DNA of 64,000 bases from Bauldia litoralis (lineage in GTDB: Bacteria > Pseudomonadota > Alphaproteobacteria > Rhizobiales > Kaistiaceae). Where the stretch lies: contig CAMCWB010000001.1 in NCBI GenBank assembly GCA_945882315.1, positions 1,560 through 65,559 on the forward strand, written 5' to 3'. The position numbers and the translations under genes are program-made. Under the pieces are notes generated by a model. That model did not search any database, was not told the DNA's origin, and worked only from the letters and a program-made list of their open reading frames with translations. Positions 3,149-13,388 of this stretch are shown here, one piece after another (position 1 is the first letter of the stretch; every line of letters begins with the position of its first letter).

Positions 3149-3505
3149 CTAGTTCCTCGGCCCGTTCATGCCTTCAACCTCGTCCATTCGACCAGCTAAC
3201 GACGCGGGCCGCCTAGATCCCCAGCCCTGACATGCACGGCATAGGGGCTCGATCAACAGTTGCGCTGCCGTGAGGCGTGCCCAGGTGGCGGTGTTGTAGG
3301 GCCACTTAGCCATGCCGCCGCACCTCATCCGCAAGGTGGTGCAGCCCGGCGACGATCTCGCTCTTGTTCTCGTGAAAGCGTTCCGGCGGCGCGGATGCGG
3401 GGTCATGCGCTCCACACGATAGGCGAGGTCCAGCAGCTTCTTATCCGGCCACTGGTCCTTACCCTCGATAAGATCGGTAAGAAAGTAAGAAGCCCGGTCA
3501 CGCAT
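3149..3505 (-). CDS. Small ORF of doubtful integrity; the 3-prime part encodes an HNH-like N-terminal motif
   Basis: ORF 3149..3505 overlaps the upstream ATPase stop by 8 nt. The middle (HPRRRNAFTRTRARSSPGCTTLRMRCGG) looks like off-frame, Arg-rich translation. An alternative frame gives PPERFHENKSEIVAGLHHLADEVRRHG-stop, whose TAA overlaps an ATG at 3313 (ATGGCTAA). That ATG opens MAKWPYNTATWARLTAAQLLIEPLCRAC, an HNH-nuclease-like N-terminus with no HNH core downstream. Confidence 0.35.
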   Translation of the reverse strand: MRDRASYFLTDLIEGKDQWPDKKLLDLAYRVERMTPHPRRRNAFTRTRARSSPGCTTLRMRCGGMAKWPYNTATWARLTAAQLLIEPLCRACQGWGSRRPASLAGRMDEVEGMNGPRN

Positions 3506-4628
3506 TGCCCCAAGCCTCCGGGTCGTCCTTGTCCTCGTATCTTATCTTCTTATCGTTCTTATCGGGGGTAGAGGGGGAAACAGGGATAAGAGTGCTCCGC
3601 TCAGGGTGCACATACAGCCCGCGCCCTGCCTTTAGCACCTCCCCGGCCTTCGCCATCTTGAACAAGAGTTGGTCGGTGTTGTTGCGAGGCATCCCCGATG
3701 CAATGGACAGGTCGCGAGGGTTCATCGGCTCAGTGGCTTCGATAAGAACCGATAAGATTTCCTCACGCTCGTCGGTGCGGCGCACCTCGCTCGCCTTGCC
3801 CAGGGCACGCCAGCGGCAAGTCAGCTTCTCGAATTGCACCGCTGTCTCGATTTCCTCGATGTCGCGGCCACGGCCGTAGAGCGTGCATCCGTTCTGGTCG
3901 CGGTCGAGGATGATGGTGGTGTCGGCCGCGCCGGACAGGCCCAGGGTGCCGCTCACCTTCTCGAATGGGTCCGACTCGGCTCCGCTCTTGCGGGTGTGGT
4001 GCACTACGACGATCGCCACGCCGGTTTCCATCGCGAGGCTTTGCAACTCCTTGATGGCCAGATAGTCGGCCTCGTAAAGCGTCTGGTCCTTGCCCTTGGC
4101 GGTCGCTTTGAACATGGCCAGAACGTCCACGATCACCAGCCGCGCGGCGGGGTGCGCGTCGATCCATTCACGGATGGCAGCAACGCCCTCAGTCGCTCGC
4201 GGCCATTCTGTGGCGAGGTGAAGCCGATCGGGCACGGGGGCGTGCACCATGGCCTCCAGTTGCCAAAGCTTGCGGATGCGAGACTGGAGCCGCCGGCGGT
4301 TGTCTTCCAGCGCCAGATACAGCACGTCACCTTGCTCGCACCGCACGTCGCCCAGGCACACGCCGCCCTCTGCAACGGCCAGCCCGATTTCCATGCAGAA
4401 CCACGACTTGCCGAGTTTCGGCTTGCCGGCAAAGAGCGTCAGGCCTTCCGCTATATAGCCGGGCACCACATACTTGATCGGGTCAAACTCTAGCTCGCAT
4501 AGATCGCGAGCGGAGATAAACCGCGTGGCCTTCGCGGTCGAGCGCTTCTGCCCTGGAGCGAAGCGGGTGATGTTTACGCCTTCCACCTTGGGAAAGCCCT
4601 CCGGGGTCGTCTCAGCGTGATTAAGCAC
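3498..4628 (-). CDS. RecA-like AAA ATPase (AAA_25/RepA-type, replicative helicase-like)
   Basis: ORF 3498..4817. Walker A is GKPKLGKSW and Walker B is VLYLALED; IVVVHHTRK is also present. I place the start at GTG 4628, which overlaps the primase stop by 8 nt, because the 4817 start would overlap the primase by about 200 nt. Confidence 0.7.
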   Translation of the reverse strand: MLNHAETTPEGFPKVEGVNITRFAPGQKRSTAKATRFISARDLCELEFDPIKYVVPGYIAEGLTLFAGKPKLGKSWFCMEIGLAVAEGGVCLGDVRCEQGDVLYLALEDNRRRLQSRIRKLWQLEAMVHAPVPDRLHLATEWPRATEGVAAIREWIDAHPAARLVIVDVLAMFKATAKGKDQTLYEADYLAIKELQSLAMETGVAIVVVHHTRKSGAESDPFEKVSGTLGLSGAADTTIILDRDQNGCTLYGRGRDIEEIETAVQFEKLTCRWRALGKASEVRRTDEREEILSVLIEATEPMNPRDLSIASGMPRNNTDQLLFKMAKAGEVLKAGRGLYVHPERSTLIPVSPSTPDKNDKKIRYEDKDDPEAWGNA

Positions 4629-5484
4629 GGCGCGCCACCTTGTCGTTGAGGTCGGCACCAGCTTGGGTCGGTGCGAGAATGATGGTTTCGACGCCGGCCG
4701 CGTGAAGGCGCTCGCCTGCGGATCGAGCGGCGTTCTGGCCTGTCCCTGAGGCGTCGTTGTCGGCCGCGATCCACACGGATTCGATGCCAGGCAGGACGGG
4801 GAAGGCCGCGATGCCATTGGCGCTCAGGACGGGCCACACCGGCATGTTGCCCAAGTCGGGCAGTTCGCGGATGGAAAGGGCGGTCTCGATGCCCTCGCCA
4901 ATCGCGATAACCTTGGTCACGTTCGCGTCGTCGGTCAGCTTCACGGCACCGCCGCCGATCGGCCCATAGGCCTTGCGGTCGATCTTGCGGCCGCTGGCGT
5001 CGATCGCCGTCCGGTGGATAGCCTGGGGCTCATTGGTGACGATATTGCGCACCAGCCCGATCATGCAGCCGTGGCGCTCGCCCTTGCCGAACGGGCAGGA
5101 CGGATGCCAGCGCAGCGCCTCGCCCTGATAGGACACGCCACGGCTCGCGAGATAGGCGACGGCCGGTGTGCCCCCGATCGGTAGAGCCTCGCGCCAGAGA
5201 GTGCCGGCGCGCTCGATACGGTCGCGATCCTCAGGCGTCGGAGTGACGATAACCGCGGAACGGGTTTTGGCTGGGGTGAAGTCGCCCAAGCCAAGGCGCT
5301 CGCGCACATGATCCTTGCAGGCCCGCCAGTCGTCGCCGGCATGAGAGAACACGGCGAAGTCGTCGCCCGTGAAGGTGACGCTCAGCGAGCGGTCGCGGCG
5401 CGAGTGTCCGGGGCCAGGGCATAGCACATTGTTGCGGCCGGCCAGGTCGCCGCCCAGGGCTTTCGCAGCATAGGAGACGTTCAT
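4621..5484 (-). CDS. Toprim-domain primase-like protein (P4-alpha-type zinc-binding N-terminus)
   Basis: ORF 4621..5484. N-terminal LCPGPGHSRRDRSLSV is a zinc-ribbon-like motif. Toprim-like motifs are IAIGEGIETALS and WIAADNDASGTG. Confidence 0.65.
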   Translation of the reverse strand: MNVSYAAKALGGDLAGRNNVLCPGPGHSRRDRSLSVTFTGDDFAVFSHAGDDWRACKDHVRERLGLGDFTPAKTRSAVIVTPTPEDRDRIERAGTLWREALPIGGTPAVAYLASRGVSYQGEALRWHPSCPFGKGERHGCMIGLVRNIVTNEPQAIHRTAIDASGRKIDRKAYGPIGGGAVKLTDDANVTKVIAIGEGIETALSIRELPDLGNMPVWPVLSANGIAAFPVLPGIESVWIAADNDASGTGQNAARSAGERLHAAGVETIILAPTQAGADLNDKVARRA

Positions 5485-5763: not shown

Positions 5764-6192
5764 ATCATTTCAATGTCTTAGGATTATTTCGCGGCCGGTT
5801 CGTTTGTCGACGTTGAGCATATTTTTAGCACGTTGACTGACGCCCAGAAGGCGCCGAGGTCCTGGACGTCAGGCCTTCGATAAATCGACAGGGGTCTCAC
5901 CCGCGCGCGCCAAGTCAGCGTTGAGATAGACCTAGCATCATGATATGCGAAAAACGCATGACTATCTCTACCGGCTCAAACCGAGGGTAGATTCGAGCCG
6001 GATCTTGCAGTCGATCCCAAGTCTATAGGGTATAGAAAAGCCGCGAGAATTTCCGCAAGGAGGAAATCGGGCGCGGAATACCCCATAGACTTTCTAAGTA
6101 TCTGTTCTTATTCTCTTTTTCTTTTTTGCCTCCCGTTGGGAGTAAAATAGTAGGGTAGAGAGAGGTATATGTACTCCCCTCACCTGGAAATT

Positions 6193-6233
6193 CTCCATCT
6201 ATAGGTTAAGAGTTATTTTACCTATAGATGGAG
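6193..6233. repeat. Perfect 13-bp inverted repeat (hairpin) CTCCATCTATAGG-N15-CCTATAGATGGAG followed by TTTTCTTT
   Basis: Read directly: arms at 6193-6205 and 6221-6233. It lies inside a 17-bp inverted repeat with one mismatch (6146-6162 and 6264-6280). Confidence 0.8.
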
Positions 6234-6292
6234 TTTTCTTTAGTTATTGGGATCACCTATCTACTCTCCACCCTACTATTCAGGAAGTCCCA

Positions 6293-6811
6293 ATGGGCCG
6301 TAGACGTGAGTCATTTCTTAAACGCATAGCCCGGCATGTCGGGCATACCGAGGAGAGCCTCACGGCCTTCCTCACGGCAGAGACCAAGAGCTGTCTGATC
6401 TGGACCGGGACCTTCAAGCCTCGGATTACGAAGGCAGTGCTTAAACAGATGGCTGGGCTCCAATTCCCCAGCATCCGCTACCCACGGCCGACGCTTTCAC
6501 CTGATGGCTTGAGCCCTACGCGACTGCTCTTCTGCATCTATCACGAGCTGCCCGAGCTAGACCCGAAGGTGTTCCTGCAGCGGCAATGCACCGATCCCGC
6601 GTGCATCTCACCATTTCACCGGACGCCGAAGGTCACCTTCAAACACGGTGAGAGGCAGTTCGCCGTCATCCCGCCTCTCAAATCGAGCCCGATTGATGGA
6701 CTGGTGGACATGTTCCGGGAGTGTGAGGAGGACTACCGGCATCATCCGGAGAATCTCGTTCATTACCCGCCCGAATTGGTAGCCGCTGCCTTTTCGAGGC
6801 TCGGTTGGTAA
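6293..6811 (+). CDS. Hypothetical protein with HNH_3-like Cys motif, lower GC than flanks
   Basis: ORF 6293..6811 with AGGAAG 5 nt upstream of the ATG. SCLIWTG...QCTDPACISPFH resembles the C-x-W-x-G ... C-x-N-P-x-C-x-N-P-x-H pattern of phage-type HNH_3 proteins. Weak call. Confidence 0.45.
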   Translation: MGRRRESFLKRIARHVGHTEESLTAFLTAETKSCLIWTGTFKPRITKAVLKQMAGLQFPSIRYPRPTLSPDGLSPTRLLFCIYHELPELDPKVFLQRQCTDPACISPFHRTPKVTFKHGERQFAVIPPLKSSPIDGLVDMFRECEEDYRHHPENLVHYPPELVAAAFSRLGW

Positions 6812-7010
6812 GCCTAAGTAAACGAGCTCGCTTTCCTGATTGCTCTGTCGAATTTATCCTCCGTCCGATCCAACTATATGGCCTGTTGCCGACTCTCGGA
6901 CGCCTGTGGAGTCGATTTTTTACTCTCCATCTGGAGTACCTAGGGAAAAGCACCTACGCGCCTCCAGAGGCATCCGCACCGGTGGGCAACTCCAATACGG
7001 CCGCTTGTCC

Positions 7011-7066: not shown

Positions 7067-7405
7067 CTACCGCGCCCAGAGGATATAGCCGTCGCAGGAG
7101 ACAACGAGGATCGCCCGTTTCCGGGTATAGCCGAGCCAGCGCAGGACCGCCGCGATCAGCGAGACGTTGTACCGCTCGGCGCAAGCGCGGAGAACGTCGA
7201 TATCGACCCTGGCGTCATCGGGAACCTGGCGGCGGAAGTCGTCGAGCGGCATCAGGAAATTGCAGCGGGGCCGCTTTTTGCCGATCAGACTGCCGATGGC
7301 GAAGAAGCGAGCGGGACCATCTATGTACTCCGCAGCAAATCCGACCATCCGGTTGTCGCGGCCAATCGCGCCATTCTGCAGCGACGTCGCGCGCCGCCTC
7401 GTCAA
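7067..7405 (-). pseudogene. Fragment of an ImmA/IrrE (DUF955) family protein lacking the HExxH region
   Basis: ORF 7067..7405. ...RCNFLMPLDDFRRQV...LRACAERYNVSLIAAVLRWLGY... resembles the region downstream of the metallopeptidase motif. No HExxH is present, and the N-terminal residues look like off-frame sequence. Confidence 0.4.
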
Positions 7406-7727
7406 CGCAAAACTCGATCCGACATTCCTGATGGCGGATGTGGAGATCGTGGCGACCTACGAGCTTTACAACATCAACCGAACGCGGCTCGAAAACCTCA
7501 TCCATCGCATCTTTGGCCCCGCGCGGCTCGACATTGAAATCAAGGATCGCTTTGGTCAGCCGGTAATTCCGCGTGAGTGGTTCCTGGTGCCGATTTTCGT
7601 CGTCGATCAGGCCGTCGACATGATCAAGGACGGCACTATCACCGGCTACAGGTACGATCCGAAGGCCGCAAAATTGGTGCAAGCCGACGAGCGAGCAATA
7701 ATTACCGATCGTATGTTTTGCGTGTGA
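7401..7727 (+). pseudogene. C-terminal fragment of a GIY-YIG / T5orf172 (MUG113) family protein
   Basis: In ORF 7167..7727 only the part from about 7401 looks like protein: DPTFLMADVEIVATYELYNINRTRLENLIHRIFGPARLDIEIKDRFGQPVIPREWFLVPIFVVDQAVDMIKDGTITGYRYDP. The upstream part is antisense to the ImmA fragment. The GIY-YIG N-terminal half is missing. Confidence 0.55.
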
Positions 7728-7732
7728 GTCCA

Positions 7733-8347
7733 CTACGAGGCGGCTCGCGCCGCCTTCGGCAAGCTCAGGCACGATGCCGCGCTTTTCTCACCGATGACGG
7801 CCACAACCTGGCTAATCCGATCCGGCGGAACGCGCATCCGGGCCTTTTGTAGAGCGCCGAGCACGGCGTCTACATGGCCTCGCTGCCCCAGGGCGCGGAC
7901 CACGGCTTCATGCAGAAGCAATTGGACCGTCGAAACCACCAGCATGTCAGGAAACCTGTCCGCGCACAGGTTCATGGCCTTGCGCTCGTCGATAAGCGCG
8001 ATTCCGCCGACCTCGTGCGCATAGCCTATGGTTGCCGCTTCGCCGTCGTCTAGCGTGCGCAGGGCAGAGCCGTCGATCAGCGCTTCGTAAACTCTGCCCC
8101 CATTATCCCCAAGGCCGACAAGGTCTATAACACCGGCGTCGATCAGCGTTTGAAGGGCACGGGCATCGTCATGTCCGTTACGCATTCCGCCGACCAGTTC
8201 CGCCAGCGCGTTCGCCGTTACAGCCCATCTATTCGGAAAGGCCGTGATGATGGCGCGCGCGCATCCGGTGGCGTTGAGATTGATCACGACGCTGGCATCA
8301 GCCACGAGAACAGGACGAGGATCAGTGAGGAAGTTTGACGAGCTCAT
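7733..8347 (-). CDS. PIN-like nuclease domain protein
   Basis: ORF 7733..8380; the first ATG is at 8347, preceded by GGAGG. Conserved acidic positions are VLVADASVVINL, ALAELV, DDGEAATIGYA and LIDERKA. It overlaps the upstream gene's stop (8322) by 26 nt. Confidence 0.6.
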   Translation of the reverse strand: MSSSNFLTDPRPVLVADASVVINLNATGCARAIITAFPNRWAVTANALAELVGGMRNGHDDARALQTLIDAGVIDLVGLGDNGGRVYEALIDGSALRTLDDGEAATIGYAHEVGGIALIDERKAMNLCADRFPDMLVVSTVQLLLHEAVVRALGQRGHVDAVLGALQKARMRVPPDRISQVVAVIGEKSAASCLSLPKAARAAS

Positions 8348-9503
8348 TCGCTTCGCTTTCCTCCATTTCCGCGCCGTCAAGAACCTCTCTCATGTCATGC
8401 CGGTCGAGGTGCAGCAGGCGAGCGAGCTGACCTTCGCTATAAAAGCCGCGCTTCCACGTCTCGCGCGCGAGTAGGGCAAGGCGCGGCGGCACGAAGCCCT
8501 GCGCCTCAACGGCGTTCAGGCTACGATCTGGCAGTTCGCCCAGCACCCGCCGTGCCTGCTCGTTGGTGATACCGCCGTTGTTCTGGAACCAGTCCCACGT
8601 CCCGCTGTTGGCAAGAGACAAGTCCTCTAACCGGCGCACGATGGCCTCTCGCGCCAGCCCGAAATCATGTGCGAGCAGGATGATGTGGCGGCGCGTCAGG
8701 TGCGATTGTCCCGCCGTGATTTCTGCAAAGCGTTGCCGCACAGCGCGTGCGGGCGCGAGAAATGAAGGAGCGAAGGCCTTGGCATAGCGCTCCTCCCGCG
8801 ATGAAAACTTCTCATCCTCGGTCAGGGCCTCGGGCTGGCGGCGCGCCGATATGAAATGCGCCAGCTCGTGAATGCCCGTCTGCCGGAAACGTTCAGACGG
8901 ATGGCTTGCATTGAGAAGAATGCACGCACCAACCGCATCGTCATAAGCGAACAGACCCGACACTCTTCCATCAAGCCGCCGCACATAGACGCGGATGCCG
9001 AGCTGATCGAGGATGGACACGATATCAAGCACCGGGCCTGGACCAAGGCCCAGCCAGTCGCGCAACTCCTGCGCATCCTGTTCGGCTTGCGCGCGCACAT
9101 CGCCCGGGAGGATAGGACGCTCCGGCGGGTAGTTGCGGGCGCGCTTTATACCGAGCGCGTTTTCAAGCTCGACCTCGGCGCGGACAAGGTCATTCAGAAG
9201 GCGGGCTGCATTCTCAATGGCATCGCCGCCGCTTTGCGGGAGCTTCCGAAAACGCGGCACCATGTCGAGATGCACGGCTTCCCGCCGCAGGATGGCATTC
9301 GCTGAAGTGCGATAGAGGGTCGCGAGCTTTTGCAGTTCATCCATCCGCACGCGCCGCTGGCCTTTTTCAATCGCGACGATGGTCGTGCGCGCGACGTCGA
9401 TGGCTTCCGCCGCCGCCGACTGCGTGAATTTCTCACCCTCGCGGGCAACCCGCAGCCGCTCGCCGATCTCTAGGTCCGATAATTTCTCAGCATTCTCGGT
9501 CAT
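8322..9503 (-). CDS. XRE-family HTH fused to ImmA/IrrE (COG2856, M78-like) zinc metallopeptidase
   Basis: ORF 8322..9503. N-terminal HTH is IGERLRVAREGEKFTQSAAAEAIDVARTTIVAIEKGQRRV. The HExxH motif is IHELAHF. The start overlaps the upstream stop as ATGA (9500-9503). Confidence 0.85.
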   Translation of the reverse strand: MTENAEKLSDLEIGERLRVAREGEKFTQSAAAEAIDVARTTIVAIEKGQRRVRMDELQKLATLYRTSANAILRREAVHLDMVPRFRKLPQSGGDAIENAARLLNDLVRAEVELENALGIKRARNYPPERPILPGDVRAQAEQDAQELRDWLGLGPGPVLDIVSILDQLGIRVYVRRLDGRVSGLFAYDDAVGACILLNASHPSERFRQTGIHELAHFISARRQPEALTEDEKFSSREERYAKAFAPSFLAPARAVRQRFAEITAGQSHLTRRHIILLAHDFGLAREAIVRRLEDLSLANSGTWDWFQNNGGITNEQARRVLGELPDRSLNAVEAQGFVPPRLALLARETWKRGFYSEGQLARLLHLDRHDMREVLDGAEMEESEANELVKLPH

Positions 9504-10874
9504 TGTTCAGTCCGCGCCCATTGTCTTACGAACGAGTGCGCTCCTAGCGAATTCATGTAGGACTTCCATTCTTCTGCGTGCTTGGTGAGCAGGGCAGCGA
9601 GCCGGTCGCACGCCTCCTGCGGGCCCAGCCCGAGAGCTGGCCCCAGTGTTGCCGCGTGACGGGTGACTTCGGACCTCTGTTCCGCCGTCGCCATGTCCGC
9701 GAGGTGGTCCATGTGGAGGATACCGGCCAGTGCGTATTCGCGGAATGCGCCCCCCGTTTTCGTGAAACCCGGTTCAACGGCGGCATCCAGCGTGGCTGCC
9801 GTCATGTCTGAACAGATGTACGTTTCTGGCGGCTCGGTCAGGCCAGCGGCGTGAACGCTGACGCGTCGTAGCATGCAGGCGGCACAGACGCCGCATTGCC
9901 GCTGCTTCCCGTTGATCGAACTCCACTGGTTGTTGCGCCAGCAGGATTTCGTCTTGCGCCAGGTGTCGGTACTGTCGATCGCCACATACGCGCGCAGCGT
10001 CTCGCCTTTGGTGTTCCAGATGCGGGGGGAAGACGTAGCTGACGTCCTTGTCGAGCAAGGCTTTCAGGAAACGCTCCATGCGCCGCGTGAAGCACGGGTG
10101 GTTACGGAAGTCGGGGTAGGCGTGGCCCACCGTCAACAGGGCGGGGCCGACAGCGCCTTGGCCGCTCTCGGGAATCACGATCTCGATGGCGTCGGTCAGA
10201 TAGGCCGCAATGCCGCTGATGAGGGCGAACTTGAATCCGCGCGTACGAGCGCTGGTTTCCCGGTTCGGCATGTCTGACGACACATCATAAGGCACGGCGG
10301 TGAAGGGCTCGCGTTTGCCCTTCTCGCGCGGGCGGTCCGCCGTCATCGTGCCGACACGGACACGGACGAGCTTTTCGCCCAGCGTTGCGCCGACGAGCCC
10401 AGCGACCGCGCGCGAGTCCATGCCGTTGCTGAACGCAAGGATGGCCTGCGTCGGCACGGTCAGGGCAAGCATGCCCAGCGACAGGGCGGGTTCAGGCATA
10501 GTGCGTTTTACAAAGCTGATGGCCCAGACATCGCCGGTCAGGAATCCGAGCGCATCATGCAAGGCACTTGAAACGTCCGGCGCGCTCCAGCGCGCCGGAT
10601 CGTGGACGGGAATGCGCAGGGTCAGGCGACGCCCCCAGCCATGCGGGGGGCATTTGACGATCTTGTCGGCATATTCGACGGCTGCTGCGACAACGAGCGC
10701 ATCGTGAGTCACGGGTTCCCACCGCGCGAACCCGAAGGATTCGAGCGCTGCCGTCGAGAAGCTGACATCTCTGCCGAGGTCGAAGGCGATGTGGTCCTTA
10801 CGGGCACGGCGGCCCGGTTCGACGACGTCGATGTCCTTCGCGGGCATCCGCATGAAATAGGGTTCCGCGTTCAT
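9500..10874 (-). pseudogene. QueC-like PP-loop ATPase (about 457 aa if repaired) interrupted by a +1 frameshift in a G6/C6 run
   Basis: ORFs 9774..10874 and 9500..9985 are two frames of one gene. The PP-loop variant is AFSNGMDSRAV. The C-terminal Cys cluster is KSCW...QCGVCAACMLRR. Removing one C at 10024-10029 joins ...VSYVFP to RIWNTKGETLRAYVAIDSTDTW.... Confidence 0.75.
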
Positions 10875-11431
10875 AGGGTCGGCCCTTCATCAAGGCCGGT
10901 ATGGCGGGGCAAGTGCGCCGCGCCGCGCGGCGATTGCCCGCCAGACATGAATCTGGAAGCGATAGATTTGAAATCGCATTGCTGGCGCGCGGCATCGAGC
11001 CGGTCGCGCACGTACTGCGCGCTGCGCGCGCTGGCCTCGCGGTGGTAATGCTCCTCGACGCTGCGAAATTGGCTCCGCACTTGCGCTTCGCAGGCAGTCT
11101 CCAGCGGAGCCCGGTAGGCGGCTTCGCCGATCAGACCCCCGCTGACGGCCTGGATGGCGCAGTCGATGACAACATTGCATGCCGCCGAACGCGTGCTCGC
11201 CTGCCGGACAGCTTCCAGCCGTTCGATCTCGTTGTTAGCGAAAAGGGAGCCTTGATCGCCACTGAGGATGTCCCGGATCGCGGCGAGCGGCGCTTCACGC
11301 AAATCCTTTTGCAGGGCAACCGGCAAAGCTTCACAGACCTCATCCGCGGAATAAGCGGCCTTCGCTGCCCGCTCCACGAGGTTTCTCCAGTGCCGCCGCA
11401 TCGGCAGACTTCTATGAGGCCCGTCACTCAT
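10871..11431 (-). CDS. Hypothetical, apparently alpha-helical protein (186 aa), first gene of the operon
   Basis: ORF 10871..11431. Its stop overlaps the QueC-like start as ATGA (10871-10874). No motif recognised. Confidence 0.6.
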   Translation of the reverse strand: MSDGPHRSLPMRRHWRNLVERAAKAAYSADEVCEALPVALQKDLREAPLAAIRDILSGDQGSLFANNEIERLEAVRQASTRSAACNVVIDCAIQAVSGGLIGEAAYRAPLETACEAQVRSQFRSVEEHYHREASARSAQYVRDRLDAARQQCDFKSIASRFMSGGQSPRGAAHLPRHTGLDEGPTL

Positions 11432-11443
11432 GGCGATTCTCCA

Positions 11444-11479
11444 TGTCAGAAATATATCTACAAAATACTGACAATGTCA
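11444..11479. promoter_or_regulatory. Candidate operator: TGTCAG-N18-CTGACA plus adjacent TGTCA half-site in an AT-rich promoter region
   Basis: Half-sites at 11444-11449, 11468-11473 and 11475-11479, starting 13 nt upstream of the ATG at 11431 of the minus-strand operon, which encodes an XRE HTH protein. Confidence 0.35.
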
Positions 11480-11787
11480 AATTTAAACGCGGGGCGGACG
11501 CGGGGTGGTTTGAATGAGGCCGTCGTTGCTAAGGCCGGCTATGCGTTTTGGCAGTCTTTCAACCTCGGGTCGCCGCCGTTCCTCGCCGCGCAGCGGGCTT
11601 GAGTTGCGCATACGGGCCGATGCGCGGGGAAGAGATAATGTTCAGTATTGCAGGCTTTACCTTCTTTAGTGTTCATGAATGCGAACGTTAATTGCAAAGA
11701 GCGGTCGAGGCTGAGGTTTTTGGGCTGCTTGCCTTATGTTCATAATTGTGTACGCTAAAAGACTTATTGACCAGCAATGTGAACGCT

Positions 11788-12129
11788 ATGGAAAAGACCA
11801 ACTCTTATGACCTGCCGCTTCCCGTTCGCCGTGCCTTGCGCAAGCTGGGGCAGGATATCCGCGACGCGCGGCGGCGGCGGCGGATTCCGTCCGTCGTTCT
11901 GGCGCAGCGCGCCTCCATAAGCCGGACCACCCTGGTCAAGGTCGAGAAGGGGGAGGCAGGCGTATCCCTCGGGATTTATGCCACGGTTCTGTTCGTTCTT
12001 GGTCTGGTCGACCGCTTGTCCATCCTCGCTGATGTCCGGCACGACGCGCGCGGGCTGGAGCTTGAAGAAGAGCATCTGCCCCAACGCATCCGTCGGCCCA
12101 AGTCAGCGCCCTCCCAGGAGCGCAGCTGA
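11788..12129 (+). CDS. hipB: HipB-like XRE-family antitoxin
   Basis: ORF 11746..12129 (TTG); I prefer ATG 11788. HTH is RRIPSVVLAQRASISRTTLVKVEKGEAGV. The stop overlaps the hipA ATG (TGATG at 12127-12131). Confidence 0.8.
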   Translation: MEKTNSYDLPLPVRRALRKLGQDIRDARRRRRIPSVVLAQRASISRTTLVKVEKGEAGVSLGIYATVLFVLGLVDRLSILADVRHDARGLELEEEHLPQRIRRPKSAPSQERS

Positions 12130-13388
12130 TGGACCGCGAAGCTCTTGTCCATGCCGACCTGAATGGAGAGCCGCATCTTGTCGGCCATCTGTGGGCTCAT
12201 ATGCGGAAGAACCGCGAAAGTGCCACCTTCGAGTACGCACGCTCGTGGCTCGACAGCCCTAGCCGGTTTGCCCTTGAGCCAGCCTTGCAGCTTGGGCAGG
12301 GCGCTTTCCATACCGCTGCCGATCGATTGCTTTTCGGCTCGATTGGCGACTCCGCGCCGGATCGTTGGGGGCGCGTGCTGATGCGCCGCGCCGAACGCCG
12401 CCGCGCCGACAAAGCGGGGGAGGCACCCCGGACCCTGCGTGAAATCGACTATCTGCTGGCCGTGGATGATGAAGCACGGCAGGGCGCGTTGCGGTTCACC
12501 GGGGAGGACGGCGGTCCCTTTCTCGCCGATCATCAGGACGCCACGCGCATCCCGCCGCTGATTGAGCTGCCCCGTCTTCTGGCCGCCGCCGAGCGCATCG
12601 TCGATGACAATGACGACGATGATGAAGACCTGCGCCTGTTACTGGCACCGGGCTCGTCACTGGGAGGAGCGCGTCCCAAAGCGTCCGTCCGCGATGAAAA
12701 CAGGCGACTGGTCATCGCCAAATTCCCTCACAAGGAGGATGAGTTCAACACGGTTGCCTGGGAAGCTGTCGCTTTGAACCTGTCAGCCAAGGCGGGAATC
12801 CGGACAGCCGCCTTCCGCTACGAGCATATCGCCGGGAAGCCCGTGCTTCTGCTCCAGCGCTTCGATCGCGATGGGAACACGCGGATTCCGTTCCTGTCCG
12901 CCATGAGCATGCTGGGCGCAAAGGATGGAGAGACGCATAGCTATCTCGAAATTGTCGACGCCCTGCGGCAAAGCGGAGCAAGGCCGAAGGAGGACATGCA
13001 CGAGCTGTGGCGCAGGATCGTGTTCACCGTCCTGATTTCAAATGTCGACGATCATATGCGCAACCATGGCTTCCTCTACACGGGGCAGGACGGGTGGGTT
13101 CTCTCGCCCGCCTACGATCTCAACCCCATGCCGGTGGACGTAAAGCCGCGCGTACTTTCAACCGCGATTGATCTCGACGATCAGACGGCGTCGCTGGACC
13201 TTGCTCTGTCCGTCGCCGGTTACTTTGAGCTGAAAGCCCCGGCGGCGCGGGCGATAGCCGCCGAAGTTGCCGTGGCCGTGGCAGGCTGGCGAGACGAAGC
13301 CGCCCGCATCGGTCTGACGAAAAGGGAATGCGACCGGATGGCCTCGGCGTTCGAGCACGAAGACCTGCAAGCGGTCCTGAAGCCGTAG
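12129..13388 (+). CDS. hipA: HipA-family serine/threonine kinase toxin
   Basis: ORF 12129..13388. Motifs GSSLGGARPKASV and NVDDHMRNHGFL, with a HipA N-terminal coupling region. Confidence 0.9.
   Translation: MDREALVHADLNGEPHLVGHLWAHMRKNRESATFEYARSWLDSPSRFALEPALQLGQGAFHTAADRLLFGSIGDSAPDRWGRVLMRRAERRRADKAGEAPRTLREIDYLLAVDDEARQGALRFTGEDGGPFLADHQDATRIPPLIELPRLLAAAERIVDDNDDDDEDLRLLLAPGSSLGGARPKASVRDENRRLVIAKFPHKEDEFNTVAWEAVALNLSAKAGIRTAAFRYEHIAGKPVLLLQRFDRDGNTRIPFLSAMSMLGAKDGETHSYLEIVDALRQSGARPKEDMHELWRRIVFTVLISNVDDHMRNHGFLYTGQDGWVLSPAYDLNPMPVDVKPRVLSTAIDLDDQTASLDLALSVAGYFELKAPAARAIAAEVAVAVAGWRDEAARIGLTKRECDRMASAFEHEDLQAVLKP

Follow-up and report, generated by a model that had tools for sequence, protein, structure and literature searches.

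The Qat anti-phage system, qatABCD, combines a QueC-family enzyme, QatC, and its small helical partner QatB with a KAP-family NTPase (QatA) and a TatD nuclease (QatD). Three structural papers of 2026 have made QatBC the core of the system; in these reports, QatBC is the minimal Qat unit and the N-terminus of QatB is essential, but they could not establish what it is that QatC adds to QatB, nor how phage is stopped by it (PMC13279940, PMC13376578, PMC13639016). QatBC alone protects against lambda-vir (PMC13279940), the essential N-terminal tail of QatB (MGTS...P..W) inserts where QatC has its active site (PMC13279940; PMC13376578), and QatB also binds the nuclease QatD in canonical Qat (PMC13639016). 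In type IV CBASS (cyclic oligonucleotide-based anti-phage signaling system), the QueC-family enzyme Cap9 attaches 7-amido-7-deazaguanine to Gly2 of the cGAS/DncV-like nucleotidyltransferase (CD-NTase) (bioRxiv 10.1101/2025.04.06.647259), which bears out the nucleobase-protein conjugation that an initial annotation of the present DNA had mentioned. Here we describe a four-gene cassette, with genes A to D, on the minus strand at 7733-11431 of a window of 64,000 nt from Bauldia litoralis (contig CAMCWB010000001.1 of assembly GCA_945882315.1, positions 1,560-65,559; cassette coordinates are window positions). The cassette is probably an undescribed relative of Qat, and we consider it fairly likely that the four genes form one conserved conflict system, most likely anti-phage, that is related to qatABCD and has a QatBC-like pair as its core.

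Gene A (10871-11431) encodes a helical protein of 186 aa, the putative substrate or partner, analogous to QatB, of the enzyme encoded by gene B (9500-10874), a QatC-like PP-loop enzyme of the QueC family that is 457 aa long after repair and frameshifted in the window. Gene C (8322-9503) encodes 393 aa in which an XRE-type helix-turn-helix (HTH) is fused to an M78 peptidase, a putative repressor, sensor or antitoxin. Gene D (7733-8347, with its ATG at 8347) encodes a 204-aa PIN-like (COG2405/DUF3368) putative nuclease and putative effector or toxin. The A/B and B/C junctions are both ATGA stop/start overlaps, at 10871-10874 and 9500-9503, and the C and D genes overlap by 26 nt, so the layout read in the initial annotation stands.

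These genes keep together. A metagenome scan with clade-specific peptide patterns gave 477 relatives, and the best 80 loci were examined for partners, counting only loci with enough flanking DNA and applying relaxed distance thresholds to stop-to-stop coordinates of open reading frames (ORFs). A was present at 69 of 69 such loci, C at 66 of 66 and D at 64 of 64, with all four genes, in one and the same order and strand, at 56 of 56. The full cassette is in the same order and on the same strand in all four reference genomes found (a Hyphomicrobiales metagenome-assembled genome (MAG), Rhabdaerophilum, Mesorhizobium and a Sphingomonadales MAG), and it is present also in Nitrobacter winogradskyi Nb-255 and a Nitrospinae MAG. 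Plasmids carrying it belong to Pannonibacter, Labrenzia, Methylocystis, Agrobacterium, Rhizobium, Mesorhizobium, strain NT-25 and Roseomonas, with B identity down to 36%. Among plasmids, the set and its order are kept in 25 of 25 records of the B clade, where D stands at the expected distance, and B accompanies D in 25 of 26 D records, the sole D record without B being Microvirga sp. VF16. No locus with A-B alone or C-D alone was found among the loci inspected, where the lone D of Microvirga is the only partial set. Co-occurrence of homologues had been proposed as the check on the operon, and by the metagenome and the plasmid counts alike the cassette is one cohesive unit.

B is related to QatC. 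It matches the PADLOC QatC model at 2.2e-30, and the NCBIfam QatC model (NF041925) at 112.7 bits where the equivalog cut-off is 280. In PDB, nothing but the QatC crystal structures 9zee_B (8.7e-14) and 9vlk_A (about 1e-13) is matched significantly, in an alignment that covers residues 43-370 and hence includes the QatC-specific N-terminal extension. That extension is about 145 aa, close to the roughly 150 aa first estimated, and a further extension of QatC type, about 110 aa, is found at the C-terminus. Among the QatC signature motifs catalogued by Libby et al. (PMC13329287), B has DxWxxxF, RxRxxxF (210-216), ExG, HP, P(x)4TK (283-289) and the zinc motif CGxCxxC..RR, with the zinc site at C311/C327/C330/C333; PESGQG and Y253-P-D255 are the other landmarks. 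The PP-loop SNGMDS (149-154) and the Cys cluster KSCW...QCGVCAACMLRR are both present as initially reported.

There are two places where the clade of B parts from canonical QatC. The PP-loop in the clade is S-[D/N/E]-G-[M/L]-D-S, having Asp second in 84% of sequences and Asn in the window, as compared with the canonical SGGxDS. Where canonical QatC has invariant Thr278/Thr280 (S-T-R-T-T-H-P), the clade has AYPDYRNHP, with Tyr in 95% and Asp in 100%, and HMMER aligns the Y-P-D of B exactly with the YPDCRD motif of QueC 2pg3. The Tyr and Asp of QueC and Cap9 stack on and hydrogen-bond to 7-deazaguanine, and the substrate of QatC has been considered unknown because QatC has other residues in their place (PMC13279940). 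The QatC proteins of canonical qatABCD are only 25-30% identical to B and bear the Thr-x-Thr and SGG motifs. By these sequence comparisons B is QatC-related, in a distinct clade that retains the QueC Tyr-Pro-Asp that canonical QatC lost.

Housekeeping QueC models give B low scores, 26 bits for TIGR00364 (cut-off 150) and 24 for PRK11106 (cut-off 378), and Pfam QueC covers only residues 251-339. The housekeeping motifs YxQxHxxE and VPxRN are replaced in B by QatC-type motifs, with YPD and the C-terminal third still aligning. The initial annotation had named a grouping of B with housekeeping QueC as an outcome that would count against it, and by these scores B is not a housekeeping QueC. RefSeq/PGAP and JGI label the B family "7-cyano-7-deazaguanine synthase". 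From the TIGR00364 score, that label on the family is likely a systematic misannotation.

Protein A has no match in Pfam, NCBIfam, PADLOC or PHROGs. An AlphaFold2 model made from a 62-sequence alignment is all-helical, with about ten helices and a predicted local distance difference test score (pLDDT) of 84.9, in keeping with the first description of A as an all-helical protein of 186 aa. That description also had A without any recognisable motif, which we correct, as there is a near-invariant motif at the N-terminus. In the same alignment M1, S2, D3, G4, P5, H6, L9, P10 and W15 are invariant, and the extreme N-terminus is the most conserved part of a protein whose body is fast-evolving. An exhaustive profile search expanded the family to 743 clusters at 50% identity, almost all of them stand-alone proteins of 185-195 aa that are matched from residue 1. 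The start M-[S/T]-D-G-P-[H/Y/F/W]-[R/K]-[S/T]-L-x5-W is found in 129 of 136 full-length representatives, and most of the others have visibly mis-called starts. The C-terminus is conserved as D-[E/D]-G-[P/V]-x-L. Of the cassettes seen, the one on Roseomonas mucosa plasmid NZ_CP025190.1 (locus L012, 4420-6374) diverges most; its A, from a GTG start, begins M-R-D-G-I-W-K-G-L-P...W, so that only the "D-G" and the "L-P...W" of the motif persist; the B encoded there has EAPDLRTHP, with Tyr lost and Asp kept, and a Shedu nuclease gene follows the cassette.

Whether A is a QatB was asked by several routes. Foldseek of A against PDB gave nothing significant, the best E being 0.29 in a library that runs to 2026-04-08 and may lack QatB entries. 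The hhalign probability of A against a QatB alignment is 0.3%, and a search of PDB with the A profile does not recover the QatB chains at any E<=10, where a QatB profile finds them at 1e-44 and 1e-37. With no family match either, homology of A to QatB was rejected. In the QatB alignment itself, conservation is poor over the helical body, while the MGTS start is invariant and Pro and Trp are kept a few positions further on. By analogy with this arrangement, A is a positional and, it would seem, functional analogue of QatB, without detectable homology. The QatB/QatC-like pair that had been suggested for this locus is upheld, with B related to QatC by PADLOC, NCBIfam and PDB matching, and with A as an analogue of QatB that is no detectable homologue.

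Conservation among the four proteins is highest in C. Pfam places HTH_3 at about 12-75 and Peptidase_M78 at about 166-292, which agrees with the fusion of an XRE HTH to an ImmA/IrrE-type HELAH peptidase of 393 aa as first described, and there is besides a conserved C-terminal region. The catalytic residues are H212-E-L-A-H216 and E238; over 68 sequences, conservation is 95% or more for H212-E-x-x-H216, E238 and Y240. In PADLOC, C matches 15 models of RmrA, the RosmerTA antitoxin, with 1.6e-22 for the best of them (residues 15-299), and also capP (4e-13) and capH (7e-8). A PDB entry, 9vzy_A, is a 393-aa "HTH cro/C1-type domain-containing protein" with the HTH-M78 architecture and length of C (E 8e-5, residues 17-297), for which our literature search found no citing paper.

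For D, our own scan of the window proteins gave no Pfam PIN match, and a precomputed match to DUF3368 (PF11848) is on record. The AlphaFold2 model, with pLDDT 89.9, has a C-terminal helical extension, and the top 50 PDB matches by Foldseek are almost all VapC/PIN, with probability 1.0 and target-normalised template modeling (TM) scores of 0.6-0.7. Invariant acidic residues in 63 sequences are D17, E50, D101, E103, D120 and E121. PADLOC matching of D is weak to PDC-S70 (4.9e-5) and absent for every RmrT model. Together the domain match, the fold matches and the acidic residues bear out the PIN-like identification, and D is modelled as a putative PIN-fold nuclease with conserved acidic residues. 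DUF3368/COG2405 is a VapC-like PIN group that is transcribed together with genes for HTH and DUF955 (ImmA) in a predicted three-component arrangement resembling toxin-antitoxin (TA) systems (Matelska et al. 2017, PMC5499597). The C-D pairing on its own is thus of an already known TA-like type, as the Xre-COG2856-PIN precedent in the initial annotation had it, and RosmerTA is a precedent likewise (10.1101/2022.05.11.491447). The lone D homologue in Microvirga sp. VF16 lies on pMVF16-1 (NZ_CP069355.1, locus L106, 4365-6591), is 53% identical and has its catalytic residues intact; it adjoins a hipA homologue, much as the window cassette adjoins hipBA, and transposase fragments, with no A, B or C within 6 kb, and this locus looks like a remnant.

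The region upstream of A (11437-11480, minus strand) contains a promoter, a putative operator and a ribosome-binding site. In a sigma-70 scan the promoter agrees at 11 of 12 consensus positions, with a -35 of TTGACA at 11480-11475 that is embedded in the palindrome TGACATTGTCA (11479-11469) and a -10 of TATATT at 11456-11451. Downstream of the -10 and ahead of the Shine-Dalgarno GGAGAA (11442-11437) stands CTGACA (11449-11444) as a third half-site, and TGTCAG/CTGACA forms an inverted repeat with a spacing of 18 nt. Most of about 80 loci show the arrangement TTGACAtTGTCAG-N17/18-CTGACAT-GGAG-ATG again, although their proteins are 36-90% identical and the other intergenic DNA is unrelated. We infer from this recurrence that TGACAnTGTCA...CTGACA (TGACATTGTCAG...CTGACA) is a putative operator for the HTH of C. 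The region before A has the lone conserved promoter-operator; ahead of C none was seen.

A mechanism can be proposed from these parts. B would bind the small helical protein A and use ATP to activate, by adenylation, a carboxylate substrate, probably 7-carboxy-7-deazaguanine, as B retains the Tyr-x-Asp motif of QueC and Cap9. B would then conjugate the substrate to the alpha-amine at the N-terminus of A, that is, to Ser/Thr2 after Met removal; since the A motif begins at residue 1 and has Ser or Thr in second place, this residue should become the first once Met is cut off. C may autoregulate the operon as a repressor via the TGACAnTGTCA...CTGACA operator and may be the sensor or antitoxin, with a peptidase that responds to a trigger as in RmrA, CapP, ImmA and IrrE. 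D would be the effector nuclease, and A may bridge B and D, since QatB contacts QatD in canonical Qat (PMC13639016). One speculative link between the halves is that C might trim M-S-D off A to expose the invariant Gly4, an idea that comes from Gly being the acceptor in CBASS and Qat. In its most specific form, the B clade would be a "missing link" between Cap9 and QatC that deazaguanylates Ser/Thr2 of an A unrelated to QatB (or a C-trimmed Gly4, which would be licensing triggered by infection), with the modified A activating the PIN nuclease; we offer this only tentatively and think it rather doubtful in full.

Several observations weigh against reading the cassette as a Qat-like defence system. 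A has no detectable homology to QatB, its residue 2 is Ser/Thr and not Gly, and it has about 12 residues before the first predicted helix as compared with a QatB tail of 30-90 residues. With its M-R-D-G start the Roseomonas A would keep the Met, and the B paired with it is without the Tyr. In the PP-loop of B the second Gly is changed to Asp, Asn or Glu, which is unusual for ATP pyrophosphatases, and even for canonical QatC the reaction is not reconstituted (PMC13279940). The lone D of Microvirga, without A, B and C, misfits a simple model in which D is lethal without C. The support from defence islands is qualitative, without a matched control set. What is known of the cassette comes from sequence and models, and from these we infer the defence phenotype as well as the A-B complex and its chemistry, that C binds the operator, that D cleaves a nucleic acid and which one, and the communication between the two halves. 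In the computational tests that were run, the main inferences of the initial annotation survive and are supported.

The alternative that fares best concerns the window copy only and is compatible with the Qat-related explanation for the family, namely that the Bauldia locus is what remains of a pseudogene in decay and at present does nothing in its host genome. We find this quite likely, and the window copy is probably inactive. B is broken there by a +1 frameshift into ORFs of 366 aa (9774-10874) and 161 aa (9500-9985). The change of frame is within a run of C6 (on the plus strand, a G-run at 10024-10029) where intact close relatives have C5, which corrects the account of this homopolymer in the initial annotation. 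Deleting one C restores a B of 457 aa, the length predicted for the repaired protein; the 120 best homologues in the database are, with few exceptions, 452-461 aa long, and the repaired B regains the QatC motif P(x)4TK (FPRIWNTK). Since the frameshifted 366-aa product is recorded in two assemblies, a 114-kb NCBI contig and an independent Logan assembly (run ERR3719160), it is not an artefact of the window alone; a homopolymer sequencing error is the less probable reading, the two assemblies being in agreement. The window B also has R75C, at a position where Arg is invariant in 119 of 119 homologues.

In the other direction, the window B agrees with 104 of 105 family-conserved columns. Because only R75C deviates among the 105, the inactivation of B looks recent, and the A, C and D reading frames are intact. 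Broad decay of the window B is unsupported, this one deviation being inside the normal range of the family. A programmed frameshift or phase variation was considered and rejected, as relatives have C5 and an open frame, and other broken copies break elsewhere. Those copies, in which B was disrupted independently, are on M. huakuii plasmid p_2 (locus L020, 5001-6354), with a frameshift near residue 204-214 and the adjoining genes intact, and on two metagenome contigs (L039, 378-1763; L077, 4989-6353), with in-frame stops near residues 53-67 and the neighbours intact. The independent disruptions count in favour of the pseudogene reading and suggest a recurrent loss of B, the reason being perhaps that B is costly.

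Another alternative, which we judge unlikely, is that the cassette is mainly an addiction or stabilisation module (TA) of plasmids and islands and not anti-phage. It is frequent on large, often conjugative Rhizobiales plasmids (14 of 26 conjugative), it adjoins the TA loci hipBA, vapBC, relE and AbiE, and the C-D type was originally predicted as TA (PMC5499597). Against this, TA and defence roles are not exclusive, the cassette is present on chromosomes too, and phage defence is so far the one role tied to a QatC-type enzyme that has its own substrate protein (PMC13279940, PMC13329287). Restriction-modification (RM), Shedu, TIR and Fic/SoFic genes are among the neighbours as well. In Nitrobacter the cassette has AbiE, TIR, HNH, DUF4365, type I RM and an AAA_13 protein nearby, and at other loci there are AbiE/AbiJ, Shedu, an OLD-like endonuclease, Eco57I-type RM and Lit. 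A scan of 139 flank ORFs at 76 distinct loci counted SoFic/Fic 6 times, PDC-S24 6, PDC-S04 6 and mad2 4, with several RM classes. A Fic-type gene is seen also in the Nitrospinae MAG locus (L104, 7805-8965). The defence-island context proposed initially for the operon thus holds in a qualitative sense.

We give somewhat less credence still to two independent pairs standing side by side without functional coupling, a QatBC-like A-B and a C-D of the RosmerTA or Xre-COG2856-PIN type. Each half could suffice by precedent, as QatBC does against lambda-vir (PMC13279940) and an HTH-ImmA antitoxin with its toxin does in RosmerTA (10.1101/2022.05.11.491447, PMC10440598); C has its RmrA match, and defence genes tend to cluster. 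What goes against uncoupled pairs is the 100% co-occurrence, in order and orientation, across 36-91% B identity. B and C overlap by 4 nt in the window and join tightly elsewhere, the single conserved promoter-operator stands before A with none seen before C, and no locus was found with A-B only or C-D only, the partial case being a lone D in a decayed region. Finally, that B is a genuine 7-cyano-7-deazaguanine synthase, in a regulated cluster for deazapurine metabolism or nucleic-acid modification, we regard as highly improbable, since in spite of the PGAP and JGI annotation and the retained YPD there are the QueC model scores, the partial Pfam coverage, the QatC-type motifs and extensions in place of the housekeeping ones, no queD, queE, queF, tgt or dpd in any inspected neighbourhood, and the failure of canonical QatC to complement an E. 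coli queC deletion (PMC13329287).

We return to one conserved, Qat-related conflict system as the preferred explanation and to its surroundings. In the window the cassette lies between hipBA, with hipB/hipA adjoining at 11746-13388 as the initial annotation had noted, and a low-GC stretch that has primase/helicase-like genes and a T5orf172 fragment. These flanking features are an AAA_25/DnaB-like gene at 3498-4817 and a DUF7146-Toprim primase-like gene at 4621-5484, both on the minus strand, and the T5orf172/MUG113 fragment at 7167-7727 on the plus strand; the GC minimum in the flank is 52.7%, at 6001-7000. No tRNA genes were found in the whole 64-kb window. This setting is island-like. An origin in phages was rejected, as 50,697 phage genomes gave no match other than an unrelated QueC fragment, and IMG/VR gave none.

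Another non-canonical QatC context was encountered on Mesorhizobium sp. AR10 plasmid pMspAR10a (NZ_CP080523.1, 82246-93169; locus L017, 1070-6682), where one strand encodes four proteins, the first with a CHAT domain (1023 aa), the next hypothetical (229 aa), another QatC-like and of the Thr type (FITTRHAHP), and one with an ASCH domain. This locus suggests that QatBC-like cores recruit several accessory sets.

The interest of the cassette is that part of the difficulty with QatC chemistry comes from the loss of deazaguanine-binding residues by canonical QatC, and here is a large natural variant, its A family having more than 700 clusters at 50% identity, that retains them. It is likely to be an easier biochemical entry to QatC-type chemistry and would serve as an independent test of whether QueC-family enzymes modify the N-termini of partner proteins. 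It also illustrates how defence parts of Qat type and of RosmerTA type are exchanged as modules, and it flags the RefSeq naming of the B family. If the link between Cap9 and QatC were true as outlined, nucleobase-protein conjugation would extend to a third defence family, the conjugation chemistry would be linked to proteolytic sensing, and there would be a more tractable enzyme with which to solve the QatC reaction.

To place the cassette among described systems, we compared it with each of its relatives in turn. A literature search found no paper describing the four-gene set, and the QatBC structure papers are silent on it. In a recent survey of the QueC superfamily, the neighbours given for the QatC cluster are KAP_NTPase and TatD alone, present for only about 34% of members, and an HTH-ImmA/PIN architecture goes unmentioned (PMC13329287). 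Using the single-family models of PADLOC-DB v2.0.0, no set matches the whole cassette; B is matched as QatC, C as RmrA and others, D weakly as PDC-S70, and A by none. QatA is absent from the cassette and from all inspected loci, QatD is absent with a PIN fold (DUF3368) as the fourth gene, and a CD-NTase, a Cap10 protein resembling tRNA-guanine transglycosylase (TGT) and a Cap9 of about 185 aa are absent from the cassette and its neighbours, all of which is consistent with the absences listed in the initial annotation for the window.

The closest likeness is to Qat. B has QatC-type extensions at both ends, the zinc site and most of the QatC signature motifs, and the gene of a small all-helical partner lies directly upstream of the enzyme gene, translationally coupled to it by a start/stop overlap. 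The extreme N-terminus of that partner is strongly conserved, with a Pro...Trp shortly after; a nuclease gene is in the operon, and the operon occurs in defence islands and on plasmids. The differences are that an HTH-ImmA peptidase and a PIN nuclease replace the KAP NTPase QatA and the TatD nuclease QatD, and that A starts MSDGPH where QatB has MGTS, on a much shorter tail, and is unrelated to QatB by hhalign. B itself departs from QatC in having Tyr-Pro-Asp versus Thr-x-Thr and S-[D/N/E]-G-x-D-S versus SGGxDS, with low identity and a score below the NCBIfam QatC cut-off.

With type IV CBASS the cassette shares a QueC-family enzyme that has a dedicated protein partner, and by analogy the acceptor is likely to be A's conserved N-terminus; B also retains the Tyr/Asp deazaguanine-recognition residues of Cap9. 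Unlike CBASS, it has no CD-NTase with an MGGS N-terminus, no Cap10 and no cyclic-nucleotide effector. B at 457 aa with QatC-type extensions is unlike the minimal Cap9 of about 185 aa, and residue 2 of A is Ser/Thr in place of the acceptor Gly2.

The C-D half has its own relatives. C has the architecture of RmrA, HTH with an M78 peptidase, as in RosmerTA, from which the cassette differs in that D matches no RmrT model and the unit is four genes, never two. The Xre-COG2856-PIN arrangement was reportedly described as a TA-like module by Makarova in 2009. As in that module, an HTH-DUF955 fusion is followed directly downstream by a COG2405/DUF3368 PIN gene (Matelska et al. 2017). Unlike in either RosmerTA or Xre-COG2856-PIN, the C-D of this clade is always preceded by A-B under one promoter. 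With CapH/CapP and ImmR/ImmA there is in common an XRE HTH repressor together with an ImmA-type metallopeptidase, and the cassette is distinguished from these in that the two domains are fused in C, and C is encoded inside its presumed target operon rather than divergently from it.

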